Below, piece after piece: positions 42,694-51,818 of a DNA stretch of 64,000 nucleotides. The first letter of the stretch is position 1, and every line of letters starts with the position of its first letter. Below the pieces are notes generated by a model, which was not told the origin of the DNA, did no database searches, and saw nothing but the letters and a program-made list of their open reading frames with translations. The position numbers and the translations under genes are program-made. The DNA comes from Candidatus Bathyarchaeota archaeon (GTDB lineage: Archaea; Thermoproteota; Bathyarchaeia; Bathyarchaeales; Bathycorpusculaceae): NCBI GenBank assembly GCA_963806535.1, contig CAWDYC010000011.1, positions 166,309 through 230,308 on the forward strand, given 5' to 3'.

Positions 42694-43825
42694 ATGTTCT
42701 TCCATGTGATTCTCACGTCTAATTGTAACTTGCAGTGTAAGTACTGTTTTGGTGAAAGCTTGGATGATTTTGACGAGGATTTCGGTGATGATATTGAAGT
42801 TGATTATAATTTGCCTCGCCAAATCAGTTATGACATTAAGGAATTAGCAAAGTTCTGCGAGAAAGACCCTGATTGCGTTTTGACTTTCTACGGTGGTGAA
42901 CCATTACTTGCACTAGACAAAATCAGGCAGATTATGGATAACGTTGACCCCTAAGCATTTTATGATTCAGACAAACGGCTTGCTTCTTGACAAGTTGGAG
43001 ACAAAATACGTTAACAGTTTTCACACCGTACTTGTTTCGGTAGATGGCGAAGAACCTTTGACTGATTTTTATCGTGGAAACGGTACTTTCCGCAAAGTTA
43101 TTGACAACTTGAAATTGATAAAGCGAAACGGGTTTGCCGGAGAATTAATTGCCAGAGTAACAGTGATGGAGCAAACCGACATCTACAAGCAGGTGCGATG
43201 GCTTTTAAAAAATGATGATTTTTCTTTTTCTTCAATACATTGGCAATTGAACGCAGGTTTTTGGGGAAAAGATTACCAAAGACGCAACTTTGAGGAATGG
43301 ACTAAAACAAGCTATATTCAAGGCGTAAATCGGCTTGCAGAGTTCTGGGTCGATCAGATGGAAGAGAAAAGCATCGTTTTGAAGCTTTACCCTTTGCTTG
43401 GCATAGCTAATTCTATTTTGAATGAAGAAAAAAACTGCCTTATGCGGTGCGGCGGAGGCTGGATTAACTATGCTATCCAAACTGACGGCTACATCATTCC
43501 TTGTCCAACAATGTGGGGCATGAAAAAATACTATTTAGGCAACATAAGCACTTCTAATCCGCTCAAGCTAAAGAAAATCTTTGTTGACCAGCCACCTTGT
43601 TCAAACTGTTCAATTCTCAATGTCTGTGGCGGACGCTGTTTATACACAAATATTACCAAGCGTTGGACCGATGAGGCTTACGGAAAAGTTTGCCACACAG
43701 TAGAGGAGCTTGTAAACGCCGTAAAAGTTGAGATTCCGCGTATCCAGCAGTTGATACGTCAGGGAAAGATAAGTTTAAGCGATTTTGATTTTTTGAAGTA
43801 CAATGGCTGCGAAATTATACCTTGA
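42694..43825 (+). CDS. Radical SAM/SPASM protein (AF0577/TIGR04084-like; indel near 42950)
   Basis: CNLQCKYC, YGGEP, CxxC..CGGRC and NGCEIIP C-terminus. Confidence 0.85.
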
Positions 43826-43827
43826 GT
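43805..43827 (+). repeat. attL direct repeat (3' end of radical SAM gene)
   Basis: ggctgcgaaattataccttgagt, identical to 51796-51818. Confidence 0.92.
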
Positions 43828-43895
43828 ATATTTTCGCCAAATATGCTGGTGGGGGCAAACGCTTTTCCCTGAACCTCAACCAAACAAATAACCTC

Positions 43896-44219
43896 TCAAT
43901 TTTGCTCCGTGTGCCTTTCTCGACTGAACTTTATGACTTTATCCACTCTTTCTTTGAGCACTGCATCATACTCTTTTAGAAGATCAGCCTCGTTTTTGCT
44001 GTGGTAATTATCAATCGTCAGCTTAACATCGTTCAAGGTGCAAGTAACTTCAATGATAATAAATTGGGTGTTTTCGTCAAAAGCAGCCATCCACTCCTCG
44101 AACTCTTCTTTGCTAAGTTTCTTTTGGTCATCTGTCTCATAGTAGCCATAGACAGCGTCAAAAACAGCAACCCGCCATCTAGGAATAGTTGTTGCTCGCT
44201 CAATCTTTTCAATTCTTTT
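43896..44219 (-). CDS. Element hypothetical protein
   Basis: ORF with ggaggg SD; 5' coordinate approximate (ORF track start 44237). Confidence 0.5.
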   Translation of the reverse strand, partial: KRIEKIERATTIPRWRVAVFDAVYGYYETDDQKKLSKEEFEEWMAAFDENTQFIIIEVTCTLNDVKLTIDNYHSKNEADLLKEYDAVLKERVDKVIKFSRERHTEQN

Positions 44220-44475
44220 AATCAAATTTTTACTCATTCAAACCCTCCATTGTTACTTCCATTTAGACCACAACCTCTCAGTCTCTTCCTGCCTACGCTC
44301 AAGCCTGACAAGACGTTCTTCCATATCCTCAAGCTCTACATCCTTTTCTTTTCAAGCAAGACGGCGAGTCGATCAAGAAAATCCTTTGACAAACCAGCCT
44401 CGTCATCTTCTCTTTGTTTCATTGTTGTGGTGTGGTCTATTTTTTTCCATTTCTGTTTCAAAATCTCACCTCAAC

Positions 44476-44670
44476 TTAGGACAATGCATGTAGCGACTTC
44501 TTGAGCCGTTTAGTCTTACTTTCAACTAATAGAGTTATGAAATAAGTCATTTGTTCCAGCGCCTTTTCCTTAGTTTTTGCGTCAGTTGCCTCTACAATAC
44601 ACAGTTCAATGCCTGCCTGAAGACCGTTACGATAGCTTTCTTGAATTAATTTCTTTGTTTTTTTGCTCAT
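44476..44670 (-). CDS. Element hypothetical protein
   Basis: gaggtg SD; part of a tightly packed operon. Confidence 0.55.
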   Translation of the reverse strand: MSKKTKKLIQESYRNGLQAGIELCIVEATDAKTKEKALEQMTYFITLLVESKTKRLKKSLHALS

Positions 44671-44689
44671 ATTTTCACCTCTGTTAAAC

Positions 44690-45040
44690 CTAAGTTTCTG
44701 CTTTTTTGATTAGCCTTTCTTTCAGTGCCTTTTGTATCGACTTGTTGAAAATGATTACCTCAAGCTTGGAACCTCCTATGAATTCAAGCTCATTTTTTGC
44801 TGCTATCCAGTTGTTAAGTCTAAGCAGATCACTTTTCAGCATTCTAGCTTGTACAAATGACGTAGGATCTATCTTGTATTTTGTGCCTGGATAAAACATT
44901 GTGGCTTTTTCCTGCAGATACTTGGTTACTTGAGAGTTAAGCAGGGATTCAGCCATTTCCTCGGTCGGTTGGGTATAATCTGTTGCTATGTCTGTAATCT
45001 GATTGTAGAGTTCTTCTGAAATAAGAATAGTTTTTTTCAT
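44690..45040 (-). CDS. Element protein with N-terminal RHH-like segment
   Basis: MKKTILISEELYNQI start; ggaggtg SD. Confidence 0.55.
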   Translation of the reverse strand: MKKTILISEELYNQITDIATDYTQPTEEMAESLLNSQVTKYLQEKATMFYPGTKYKIDPTSFVQARMLKSDLLRLNNWIAAKNELEFIGGSKLEVIIFNKSIQKALKERLIKKAET

Positions 45041-49751: not shown

Positions 49752-50510
49752 TCACTTAATCTGGTCCTTGCTTGTTGTGACTTTATGCGTTGGAAAATCA
49801 AAGCGTATAGAAGCAAGATTAACAATGTTGCTGCATCCTTTGCATTTGAAAGATTGGTCAGTGATGTGGCCTTTTGGAAAAACGAGTTTTTCACCGCAAT
49901 GAGGACAATAAACTGGCAGTTTCTTAAGCTGTAAATTGCCGTCTTTATCGATCTCGTAATAGTCTAGGTTAATGTTGTCAGGGTTACTCAATTCATCGAT
50001 AGCCTCTGAGATTACATGGAAAGCCTGAAGTTTACCTTGGGCTTCAGCTGCTACTTTTTGCAGTTCAAAGCTTGTATGTTGATAGTGGTAAGCGATAGCG
50101 TCAGCGTAGCCTGCACTGTAATATTTCTCCCGTATTTTTGCAGCGTCAGCGTTAGTTATGTTTTCTTGCTTAATCAGGGAATTAGCTTCGGCGATTTCTT
50201 TTTCAGCGCCTTCTCTTAATTGAACCCATTTTTTCAACTCAGCAATCACTGTATCTCTCTCTGCAACGGCAACTTTGACCTGAGTTTGTTCTGAAATGGC
50301 CCAATGTGCTAAGGTAGTTATTAACCCAGTTAATACTTGAGTTTCAATGCTTTTAATGGGGTAACTTTTTGCATGAAAGGCTTGCTTGAAAGCTAACTGA
50401 ATATTTCTAGGAGCTGCCAATACCCCTAAAGCTTCATCAAGAGACATTTTCGGTTTGCTACTCATTTTCTCGTTCTCTAACAATAGAATTTTTAGACAAA
50501 AACTCATCAT
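49752..50510 (-). CDS. Coiled-coil protein with C-terminal zinc ribbon
   Basis: Helical body; CPHC...CKGC. Confidence 0.65.
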   Translation of the reverse strand: MMSFCLKILLLENEKMSSKPKMSLDEALGVLAAPRNIQLAFKQAFHAKSYPIKSIETQVLTGLITTLAHWAISEQTQVKVAVAERDTVIAELKKWVQLREGAEKEIAEANSLIKQENITNADAAKIREKYYSAGYADAIAYHYQHTSFELQKVAAEAQGKLQAFHVISEAIDELSNPDNINLDYYEIDKDGNLQLKKLPVYCPHCGEKLVFPKGHITDQSFKCKGCSNIVNLASIRFDFPTHKVTTSKDQIK

Positions 50511-50793
50511 GGCGCCGCAAAGCCTCCAATGCCTGAGCCCTCACTCGCTTGCAGATGCCCTCACGTTCTTTAAACGGTAAATCACTGAAAAGAACCTGAA
50601 TGCCATGAGATCTGCAGTAATCCCTTAGCCACCTTTGATGTACCTCTAACTCAGTTAACCCGGGAAATTCCTTCTTTAAATAAATGGAGTGTTTGTAGAC
50701 CTTGCGATATTTTCTCTCGCAGAGGCCACAGCGAAGTTTAGGCCGTCCTGCTCTTCTGAACTGGCAGAGTAGCAGGGCAGTCTAAGCATTGCG

Positions 50794-51282
50794 TCAACGG
50801 CCGTCACGCCAGAATTTTTCCTTAGTAACAAAGATAGTCACAAGTGCACTCTGCCATCGAGGGCAGGGTTGGCCGTTAGCGAAGCAGGGATATCCTTTTT
50901 TGAATTTTCGTGTAGCATCTCGATTAGACTTTGGGGTTAGCTCCGGCTCAGTAAAATTGATTTTGCAGCATACGCTAATCATGTCGAAAAATTGTGGCCT
51001 TTGAACGATTTTTGCAAGTTCAGGACCATTAAGCCTTATGCTTTCAGCTTTTGATCGCTCAACAGCCTCGGGCGACTCAGCGGCAGAAATGTAGTAGCCA
51101 TGTATGCAGGATACGCAGCACCCAGTCTTAGTGCATAATTTGCAGTTTTGCAGCGTCATATCATAGAAGATGCAGGGTTCAGGCTGAGTAATCGCTGTTA
51201 GTTCAGGTTCTTTTTCCAATTCTTTCACCTCTTGGATAACTTGAGTTTTTGTTTTCTTTTTGAATGGATTTCTAAAATTCAT
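50794..51282 (-). CDS. Cys-rich element protein
   Basis: CKLCTKTGCCVSC and CFANGQPCPRW. Confidence 0.6.
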   Translation of the reverse strand: MNFRNPFKKKTKTQVIQEVKELEKEPELTAITQPEPCIFYDMTLQNCKLCTKTGCCVSCIHGYYISAAESPEAVERSKAESIRLNGPELAKIVQRPQFFDMISVCCKINFTEPELTPKSNRDATRKFKKGYPCFANGQPCPRWQSALVTIFVTKEKFWRDGR

Positions 51283-51285
51283 TTC

Positions 51286-51474
51286 TTAATTACCTCCATG
51301 ACTGCGAGCTCTAAACCACAGCATTTTCTCAGGGTTAGACTTGACAGAGTGCTCACGCTTACTGGTGTGGTCAATGTAGCATTGCTTGCAGTAAACCGGC
51401 TTGTCTGTTCTAGGAATAAACGGCAAAACAATCGGGGCGCCGCATACGCTGCATTTAGCATTAAAAACAGGCAT
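51286..51474 (-). CDS. CxxC-x17-CxxC domain protein
   Basis: CSVCG...PFIP..DKPVYCKQC. Confidence 0.8.
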   Translation of the reverse strand: MPVFNAKCSVCGAPIVLPFIPRTDKPVYCKQCYIDHTSKREHSVKSNPEKMLWFRARSHGGN

Positions 51475-51750
51475 CTAACGTTTAGCCTCCCAAAACTTGC
51501 AGGGTCCCCTCTCGGGAAAAGCTACTTTTGTTCTGTGCTTTGATGCCTGCAGGGGTCGATTAGGATCCAGGGTTAGGCAGCTTGGTTGAAAATCATGTTT
51601 GCACCAAAATGCAGTTGAGCCATCTGCCTCATAGTCGATAGGTGTCTCTTGGGATCTGCAATTGAAACAGCATCCGGGCATCTTACATTCTTTGCAGGCC
51701 TTCTGGCACTTCTCGATAGAAGCATGTGGGCCAGCTATGGAACCTGACAA
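51475..51750 (-). CDS. Cys-rich element protein
   Basis: CKECKMPGCCFNC and GPCKFWE; similar Cys pattern to 50794-51282; start uncertain. Confidence 0.55.
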   Translation of the reverse strand: MSGSIAGPHASIEKCQKACKECKMPGCCFNCRSQETPIDYEADGSTAFWCKHDFQPSCLTLDPNRPLQASKHRTKVAFPERGPCKFWEAKR

Positions 51751-51795
51751 AAAAGGGAAGGTTGCGCGGAGAGTGGTGACATCACCACAAAAAAC

Positions 51796-51818
51796 GGCTG
51801 CGAAATTATACCTTGAGT
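51796..51818 (+). repeat. attR direct repeat
   Basis: Identical to 43805-43827. Confidence 0.92.

Follow-up and report, generated by a model that had tools for sequence, protein, structure and literature searches.

P4-like and PICI-like satellites typically have a core consisting of an integrase and a primase-helicase. They are bacterial and are not known to carry tape measure proteins (TMPs). It was not until 2025 that TMPs were reported from satellites, and these were bacterial; according to the accessible text of that report, TMPs are otherwise not known in satellites, save for a TMP-like protein proposed for PLE11 (PMC12822802). The bacteria concerned are Mycolicibacterium, whose EPIP satellites are small, encode a TMP together with head-tail connector proteins, and are described in the same accessible text as being without tail-tube proteins (PMC12822802). 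For Archaea, the accessible part of one report names pSSVi and pSSVx as the only satellites described before the proposed SRCEs, and all of these are satellites of spindle-shaped viruses (10.1101/2025.02.15.638363). In our literature searches, no archaeal satellites that carry a TMP or belong to tailed viruses were found. Here we analyze a stretch of 64,000 nucleotides (nt), hereafter the window, from an assembly of a Candidatus Bathyarchaeota archaeon (GCA_963806535.1, here G000; 2.95 Mb in 12 contigs, estimated to be 92% complete; the window is C11:166309-230308). At positions 43805-51818 the window holds an 8-kb element that is inserted at the 3' end of a radical SAM gene and encodes a TMP, an HK97 gp10-like protein and a tail-chaperone-like protein. 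We give roughly even odds, a probability of about 0.5, to the reading that this element is a stranded, integrase-deleted member of a class of virus-derived mini-elements.

The locus resembles each of these systems in part. It is like the EPIPs in its small size and in its combination of a TMP with a connector-type protein and no tail tube. EPIPs are bacterial, have been isolated as particles and have a serine integrase, a small terminase, a scaffold and a capsid, as far as the accessible text describes them (PMC12822802), whereas the element in the window is archaeal, is without integrase, capsid or terminase, and is known here from genes alone. Two of its relatives, at about 10 kb each (in genomes G196 and G261, contigs C5 and C2, respectively), are flanked by attachment (att) repeats and encode an integrase and a D5_N/DUF5906-type primase-helicase, much as P4-like and PICI-like satellites do. 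Unlike those satellites, the window copy has neither integrase nor helicase, and no redirector of capsid size or packaging was recognized in it. The likeness to pSSVx, pSSVi and the SRCEs is one of concept, namely the combination of an incomplete module for virion morphogenesis with a replication module of plasmid type; those elements parasitize spindle-shaped viruses and carry their capsid or ATPase genes, whereas the genes found here are tail genes of head-tailed viruses (10.1101/2025.02.15.638363, accessible part). Head-tailed viruses and proviruses of Bathyarchaeia, as described in the accessible parts of two reports (PMC11705971, PMC10848311), draw on the same pool of gp10-like, chaperone and TMP genes, but they have capsid, tube and distal-tail genes, and the element has none of these. 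In common with cryptic att-flanked proviruses, the element has repeats that duplicate the 3' end of a host gene, an integrase that is cut short and only part of the structural module of a tailed virus. Unlike them, it is very compact, nearly all of its open reading frames (ORFs) are intact, and its closest TMP relatives sit in intact units of about 10 kb.

The insertion is delimited by a perfect direct repeat. The 23-nt sequence GGCTGCGAAATTATACCTTGAGT occurs exactly twice in the window, at 43805-43827 (plus strand, the attL core) and at 51796-51818 (plus strand, the attR core), and none of 100 dinucleotide shuffles contained any match. A repeat finder returned a wider repeat of 26 nt with one mismatch. 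The left copy makes up the last six codons and the stop (GCEIIP*) of the radical SAM ORF that ends at 43825 (...YNGCEIIP*), in agreement with a sequence-only reading of this DNA, made by a model before our analysis, which had proposed that the repeats duplicate the end of this gene. Host-like DNA lies outside each core, 5' of the left copy and 3' of the right copy, and element DNA lies between them. The GC content of the insert is 0.39-0.46, compared to 0.33-0.39 just upstream and 0.34-0.38 beyond position 53000.

The target gene (42694..43825, plus strand; Pfam Fer4_12, Radical_SAM and SPASM) is read as two ORFs, 42694-42954 (86 amino acids, aa) and 42944-43825 (293 aa), as the frame shifts in the CCCC run around 42946-42949. 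Its orthologue is intact in a related locus (L041, 381 aa). From its sequence, the frameshift may be an indel of the assembly or the mark of a real pseudogene. Elsewhere in the assembly, a host gene at G000:C4:101606-103022 aligns with its 480-aa orthologue as five pieces that lie in different frames, which indicates that indels are frequent in this assembly. Because host genes are frameshifted as well, neither the frameshift in the radical SAM gene nor the one at the 5' end of the TMP gene (see below) can be read as decay, error and mutation being indistinguishable at both.

The comparison set for relatives was 332 genomes of the same family (labeled G with a number; excerpted loci and virus contigs are labeled L). 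One of these, G261, has on contig C2 a site with the identical core in a single copy, a radical SAM gene that is 82% identical at the DNA level, and neither an element nor the arm motif described below. On the downstream side, the flank shares 73% identity with window positions 53175-53807. The slot between the core and this conserved flank holds a flavodoxin-like gene in G261, a GH26 gene in the window and nothing in G264. The G261 site is, to judge from this arrangement, the unoccupied attB. The identical 23-nt core was also found in three public contigs from metagenome-assembled genomes (MAGs) of Candidatus Bathyarchaeota. A tRNA or other RNA gene as the target was considered and rejected: of the three tRNA genes in the window none is at the element, and Rfam gave two matches, both below threshold (E 0.17 and 0.92).

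Directly inside the attR core lies an arm on the element side (51749..51795, plus strand; AAAAAAGGGAAG...GCGCGGAGAGTGGTGACATCACCACAAAAAAC), which was defined by alignment of 11 sites. A palindromic 12-nt motif within it, GGTGACATCACC (51775-51786), is invariant in all 11. The DNA search of the element against the 332 genomes returned many short matches to its two extreme ends; those of the left end were the 5' ends of integrase genes, and those of the right end consisted of the arm, AAAAAAGGGAAG..GCGCGGAGAGTGGTGACATCACCACAAAAAC, followed by the core. The arm-core pattern was present at 24 sites in 20 of the 332 genomes, and a control with the reversed pattern gave no sites. The window has a single such site, as has G000 as a whole.

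The distance from the stop of the radical SAM gene to the arm-core junction varied widely among genomes: approximately 1.8 kb in G300, 7 kb in G279, 8 kb in the window, 17 kb in G264 and 41 kb in G251. In G319 the first arm-core junction is 3.8 kb from the stop, and further copies follow about 1.0 and 4.2 kb on. In the excerpt of this locus (L045, G319:C3:1064100-1084099) the three copies are at 9997, 11050 and 15297, and a 69-aa C-terminal fragment of an integrase lies beside the gene; the locus looks like a decayed tandem array. In G319, G300 and G251 alike, only C-terminal fragments of the integrase remain next to the radical SAM gene, and decay is thus common at this att site. On this sequence pattern, the radical SAM gene has at its 3' end an integration hotspot, where inserts range from 1.8 to 41 kb and both tandem arrays and numerous integrase stubs are found. 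No close relative of the whole element was found in any collection searched, and a DNA search of the 332 genomes with the entire element returned fragments only, the best being 288 nt at 90% identity.

The sequence-only reading had described the element as having no integrase at all, which needs to be corrected. An N-terminal stub of about 16 codons of a tyrosine integrase is present next to the attL core (43818..43895, minus strand; it reads (E)VICLVEVQGKAFAPTSIFGENILKV*, with the stop inside the core). At the DNA level, the homology to integrase 5' ends spans 43836-43882, with 83-87% identity to genes in L047, L048, L051 and L052. These genes encode proteins of 440-495 aa that combine a Zn ribbon at the N-terminus with a tyrosine-recombinase domain. 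At the protein level, the minus strand of the window, LVEVQGKAFAPTSIFGENILKV*, aligns with the N-termini of seven integrases (MVEVQGK...SIFGS) at 29-55% identity. The 17-kb element at the same att site in G264 has an integrase of this kind in full: the gene for a 436-aa protein (PF00589, 3e-23) immediately follows the radical SAM stop, its 3' end pointing toward the core. By comparison with these genes, approximately 1.3 kb of the integrase gene, from about codon 17 to the stop, has been deleted from the window copy, the deletion ending within 8 nt of the core. The stub of the same-att family means that at least one deletion has occurred and that this copy is probably immobile. It is the N-terminus that abuts the core here, in contrast to the C-terminal stubs kept by the neighbors at the hotspot.

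There is no intact integrase next to the att sites in the window and no PF00589 match anywhere on contig C11. An intact cognate integrase is also absent from the rest of the 92%-complete assembly. The best integrase match there (C3:472426-473640, 23-35% identity) has internal stops and probably belongs to another decayed element; a match on C6 (23-24%) was much weaker. A split integrase of the SSV type was considered and rejected, as the frame of the stub stops at a TAA inside the core and the ORF at attR encodes a 91-aa Cys-rich protein with no match to integrases. The intact relatives, with the whole integrase gene on one side of the att site, also run counter to a split of that type. The first 47 nt or so of this integrase family are 83-87% identical across genera, whereas the remainder of the genes was undetectable by blastn, and this suggests that the 5' end is constrained beyond its coding function. 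That the stub abuts the core might be explained by a deletion that the integrase itself made at a pseudo-core in the 5' region of its gene; judged by eye, the resemblance was no more than loose.

The genes of the element tile the minus strand from 51750 to 43896, with the exception of a single plus-strand ORF, and number about 16: the gp10-like gene, the TMP gene, the chaperone-like gene and about 13 small, mostly Zn- or Cys-containing orphans. Scans of 16 ORFs against Pfam and PHROGs recognized only the gp10-like protein, the TMP and a treble-clef Zn finger, and found no intact integrase, replicase, capsid, terminase, portal or tube. In this respect the gene content agrees with the earlier description, which listed a tape measure, a gp10-like protein, a tail chaperone, a divergent switch and small Zn/Cys proteins, and noted that replication, head and major tail genes could not be recognized. 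The gp10-like protein, a 134-aa tail-completion or neck protein (49183..49587, minus strand), scored 31.3 bits against PF04883 (HK97-gp10_like; cut-off 21.4) and matched phrog_5 (2e-17). The TMP (47399..49176, minus strand) matched six PHROG tape-measure families (E 7e-13 to 2e-7) and aligns end to end with a 582-aa TMP of G233. The 566-aa ORF covers 47399-49099. Based on the N-termini of the relatives, translation probably begins in a different frame, at 49176 (MSEPTLSAKIAIDDSATEAL...), which implies a single frameshift near 49120; the stop of the gp10-like gene is 6 nt before this likely start.

The 133-aa ORF downstream of the TMP gene (46799..47200, minus strand) is called tail-assembly-chaperone-like because of synteny in relatives. 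Homologues were found in 19 of the 332 genomes and, where the neighborhood could be seen, lie directly upstream of a TMP gene; in the window this order is reversed. An AlphaFold2 model of the protein (predicted local distance difference test, pLDDT, 65) had no match in PDB and weak matches in BFVD (best E 0.03), where 8 of the 50 listed rows were named tail assembly chaperone.

In nine relatives the tail module has the order gp10-like, X, chaperone-like, TMP. The X proteins are mutually homologous (27-95% identity), and an AlphaFold2 model of X (pLDDT 69) had seven PDB matches at E<=1e-3, including the tail tubes of phage 812, SPR and R4C. On the strength of this model, X is identified as a tube-fold protein. 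No match to X was found by tblastn in the window or in all of G000, or by a six-frame search of 43001-52500 with a profile hidden Markov model (HMM) at E<=1. The gp10-like gene in the window is followed directly by the TMP gene, and the chaperone-like gene comes after both. Also without a homologue in G000 were the capsid of the relatives, their 369-aa head-module protein (by tblastn), the D5 helicase and the PrimPol, and the assembly holds no second TMP. Two virus contigs with a capsid gene (L138, at 9388-11359, and L137) have the gp10-like gene followed by the TMP gene after 2 nt, with no recognizable tube or chaperone gene between them. This gp10-like protein is the closest that we found to that of the window (37.5% identity). 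Since the direct junction of the two genes is native in these contigs, the junction in the window need not be a scar.

Homologues of the gp10-like protein, the chaperone-like protein and the TMP, 30-49% identical, occur in tail modules of related genomes and of IMG/VR contigs. The full tailed loci have tube, chaperone and TMP genes in this order in all eight 20-kb genome loci, four of which also had a capsid match; among 52 IMG/VR loci found with a TMP profile, 37 have tube and chaperone genes upstream of the TMP gene. A second kind of context is much smaller. In G196, a 10.3-kb mini-element on contig C5 (L021:4614-14889) is bounded by perfect 21-bp repeats and encodes an integrase, a D5_N/DUF5906 helicase and a TMP, together with homologues of the 112-, 57- and 64-aa ORFs of the window. 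In G261, a 9.9-kb mini-element on contig C2 (L056:1175-11218), with 124-nt imperfect repeats beside a tRNA-like sequence, has the same three genes. An 11.35-kb element in G233, contig C14 (L095:7216-18598), has 31-nt repeats, an integrase and a TMP, and also encodes a 56-aa chaperone-like fragment (HMM E 2.6e-5). The fourth small context, in G249 on contig C1 (L096, about 4700-11200), has a TMP gene away from other tail genes and beside a homologue of the 162-aa ORF of the window; no boundaries were found for it.

These four loci have a common feature: a 75-aa Zn-ribbon protein is encoded right after the TMP in 4/4 of them and in 0/52 of the IMG/VR loci. Three of the four have an integrase, and two have a D5-type helicase. 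None of them showed a capsid, tube or gp10 gene, and none of the 10 larger unknown ORFs of these relatives that were examined belongs to a head or packaging family. The three repeat-bounded units of 9.9, 10.3 and 11.35 kb have integrase, TMP and 75-aa protein in common; however, their TMPs fall into at least two clades, and the window copy is without the 75-aa protein. In a tree of 58 TMP rows (quick IQ-TREE, with SH-aLRT as the only support value), the window TMP fell into a clade of five rows (SH-aLRT 97) with those of G233, G249 and G261 and of one contig with a tail module, L100. In G196 the TMP of the mini-element (C5:416419-417765) is 61% identical over 452 aa to that of a full provirus in the same genome (C4:60203-61474), with DNA identity of up to 78% over 458 nt, and no other gene is common to the two elements. 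As a single query the window TMP found nothing in IMG/VR or in JGI metagenome contigs, and its matches in phage GenBank records were distant and partial (161 records, none covering 80% of the query and all below 60% identity). The nearest TMP relatives are about 40-45% identical, a distance at which synonymous sites are saturated.

We consider that these observations are best explained, at the odds given above, if the element is a stranded member of this mini-element class. An element with a tyrosine integrase of the N-terminal-Zn-ribbon family would have recombined its attP with the radical SAM gene at its 3' end. This attP would have consisted of a 23-bp core identical to the last codons of that gene and of an arm that includes the invariant GGTGACATCACC. 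As the core was duplicated by the recombination, the host gene would have kept its end. The integrase gene was then deleted from about codon 17 to its stop. What remains is a compact, nearly unidirectional set of about 16 genes, with the gp10-like protein, a full-length TMP, the chaperone-like protein, a divergent switch and small Zn/Cys proteins, from which any gene for replication, capsid, packaging, tube or distal tail is missing. The TMP and several of the small genes tie this set to the repeat-bounded elements of about 10-11 kb in related genomes. From the insertion, the deletion, the missing genes and the absence from G000 of a cognate integrase or helper-type genes, we infer that the copy is stranded and can no longer move by itself. 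The class as a whole would appear to use tail parts of tailed viruses. That three independent repeat-bounded units of 10-11 kb share integrase, TMP and 75-aa protein, and that the TMP and the switch of the window are closest to those of such units, makes an origin among the mini-elements the best single reading.

Several observations weigh against this reading. Outside the window, the gp10-like and chaperone-like genes were seen in full tail modules only, the four small-context relatives being without them, and the 75-aa partner, helicase and integrase typical of the class are all missing from the window copy; for the 75-aa protein, the window was searched and no copy was found. The small-element TMPs are not monophyletic, with that of the G196 mini-element being sister to the TMP of virus contig L107 (SH-aLRT 99) and that of G132 falling elsewhere, so the class may consist of convergent remnants. 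The terminal branch of the window TMP (0.99) is the longest of its clade, compared to 0.32-0.63 for the others. L107 has the order gp10, tube, chaperone, TMP, distal tail and lysogeny genes, followed by homologues of the 112-aa and 49-aa ORFs, and is thus partly collinear with the window, which fits a deleted provirus as well. The dense ORFs and the full-length TMP are not what would be expected of old debris. Finally, with no close relative of the whole element in the collections searched, its ancestry rests on proteins that are 25-45% identical.

Some of these points favor the view that the element is what is left of a full-size temperate head-tailed provirus of 30-40 kb, from which the integrase, head module, tube, distal tail and lysis genes were lost by independent deletions. 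The likeness to the elements of about 10 kb would then reflect shared ancestry of mosaic modules and not membership in a class. We regard this account as doubtful, and as the one among the alternatives to be taken most seriously. The integrase stub proves at least one deletion, and decay is common at this att site. The homologues of the gp10-like protein, chaperone and TMP sit in complete tail modules at 8/8 genome loci and 37/52 IMG/VR loci, a major head protein (phrog_1650, 1e-15) is encoded in the provirus on G196:C4, and the long TMP branch also fits. It is the restriction of the gp10-like and chaperone genes to full tail modules, together with the partial collinearity with L107, that keeps a multiply deleted provirus alive as an explanation. 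At least four deletions would nevertheless be needed, all near gene boundaries (the gp10-like stop being so close to the likely TMP start), and the chaperone gene would have had to be relocated to the downstream side of the TMP gene. Coding density is high, the TMP has its full length, its closest homologues are in small elements, and the gp10-TMP junction has native counterparts in L137 and L138. A full provirus from which the element could be derived by a simple internal deletion, which the sequence-only reading had named as evidence against its proposal, was not found; partial collinearity with L107 was the nearest case.

The same reading had favored a satellite that interferes with the tail of a helper virus and is mobilized in trans. 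For the relatives there is indirect support for such an idea, as the closest TMPs are in repeat-bounded integrase elements of 9.9-11.4 kb without capsid or tube; the part concerning the window copy itself does not fare well, given its deleted integrase and probable immobility. That the copy still works in this way, mobilized by a related integrase such as that of a tandem co-resident at the hotspot, and that its own TMP, chaperone and tail-completion protein enter or derail a helper tail when a tailed virus infects or a neighbor is induced, seems unlikely to us. The attR arm and both cores are intact, and relatives have tandem arrays with several arm-core copies, three in G319, and extra integrases. 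The three tail proteins form a coherent set of assembly factors other than the tube, and in G196 a 10.3-kb mini-element resides together with a full provirus whose TMP is 61% identical to its own. There is also a bacterial precedent in the EPIPs, for which a TMP, a head-tail adaptor, a stopper and altered tail lengths are described in the accessible text (PMC12822802). However, attP has lost its integrase-side arm along with the integrase, the element has no replication gene and no recognizable packaging signal or small terminase, and the 92%-complete assembly holds no cognate integrase, tube, capsid or second TMP. If the element were instead a domesticated defense locus, its TMP, gp10-like protein or one of its Zn proteins would block assembly or entry of related viruses. 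Most ORFs have stayed intact despite the loss of the integrase, and interference with tail assembly by proteins of prophages and PICIs is known in bacteria, according to the accessible parts of two reports (PMC10884400, PMC11364771). Yet PADLOC models, run on 10 proteins of the element, left nine without a match and gave only weak coiled-coil matches for the TMP (E 1e-3 to 9e-3), and the element is not conserved at any locus in related genomes, which argues against selection at the level of the host; we consider a defense locus very unlikely. Least likely of all, and extremely improbable, is an artifact, that is, a chimeric join or a collapsed repeat in the MAG. The assembly does have frameshifts in host genes, at the C run of the radical SAM gene and in the C4 gene that is in five pieces, but indels do not create junctions like these: both are exactly as in site-specific integration, attR has the conserved arm on its inner side, as do 10 other sites, and the flanks are syntenic with G261.

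For the class to which we assign the stranded copy, a function can be suggested tentatively, and we hold it to be rather doubtful. The Bathyarchaeia elements of about 10 kb might be satellites of archaeal head-tailed viruses, with TMPs of their own that take over or spoil the assembly of the helper's tail, and the element in the window would be an integrase-less member that has kept a chaperone and a tail-completion protein as well. The window copy itself is probably inert cargo. If the suggestion is right, archaeal tailed viruses would have their first known satellites, and in the bacterial EPIPs, which also carry a TMP, these would have an independent parallel. Mobile units dependent on tailed viruses would add a new layer of parasitism in a highly abundant group of sediment archaea and would amount to a natural test of how helper tails accept a foreign TMP. 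Whatever the function, the radical SAM 3' hotspot, the anatomy of attP (a 23-bp core plus an arm with a 12-nt palindromic motif) and the integrase family with an N-terminal Zn ribbon can help to delimit elements in uncultured genomes.

The remaining genes of the element are small, and most are orphans. On the attR side of the tail genes are a 252-aa orphan with a helical region and a C-terminal Zn ribbon (49752..50510, minus strand), a 162-aa Cys-rich ORF (50794..51282, minus strand; weak homologue beside the TMP cluster of G249, 25% over 150 aa, E 2e-7), a 62-aa treble-clef Zn finger (51286-51474, minus strand; PF23477, 7.5e-12) and the 91-aa Cys-rich ORF (within 51286..51750, minus strand), which had no match in Pfam, PHROGs or PADLOC. 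The 252-aa protein likewise belongs to no family in Pfam, PHROGs or PADLOC. It matched only itself among 5.8 billion proteins and nothing in genome contigs, and in a protein atlas its best score was 0.85, with none at the lead level of >=0.9.

On the attL side, the divergent switch (46066..46352) comprises the starts of a 112-aa ORF and of the plus-strand 74-aa ORF (46248-46472) and the intergenic DNA between them, and is 90% identical at the DNA level to part of the mini-element on G261:C2. The 112-aa ORF, the first gene at the switch (45774..46112, minus strand), has a C-terminal Cys cluster and homologues in G196:C5 and L107. It is followed by a 76-aa ORF (45629-45859, minus strand; homologue in the G261 mini-element), a 49-aa ORF (45483-45632, minus strand; homologue in L107), and ORFs of 40 and 66 aa (45197..45510, minus strand) with homologues in the G251 element (68% and 74-78% identity). 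Next come a 57-aa Cys-containing protein (45037..45210, minus strand), with a homologue in the G196:C5 mini-element (65% over 51 aa), a 116-aa ORF (44690..45040, minus strand), with a homologue in the G251 element, which bears an integrase (37.5% over 104 aa), and a 64-aa ORF (44476..44670, minus strand), with a weak homologue in the G196:C5 mini-element (31% over 45 aa, E 1e-4). The last gene before the integrase stub is a 113-aa orphan (43896..44237, minus strand) of no Pfam, PHROG or PADLOC family.

Beyond attR, a GH26-family gene encoding 431 aa (51819-53178) lies between the attR core and the conserved flank, which begins with an 86-aa gene (53175-53435). The GC content of the GH26 stretch is 0.43, compared to 0.34-0.38 further on, and the DNA directly after attR (TTTTGGAA) is similar to the integrase-side arm of intact elements. 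Judging from these sequences, the GH26 gene may be cargo left behind by an earlier tandem element.

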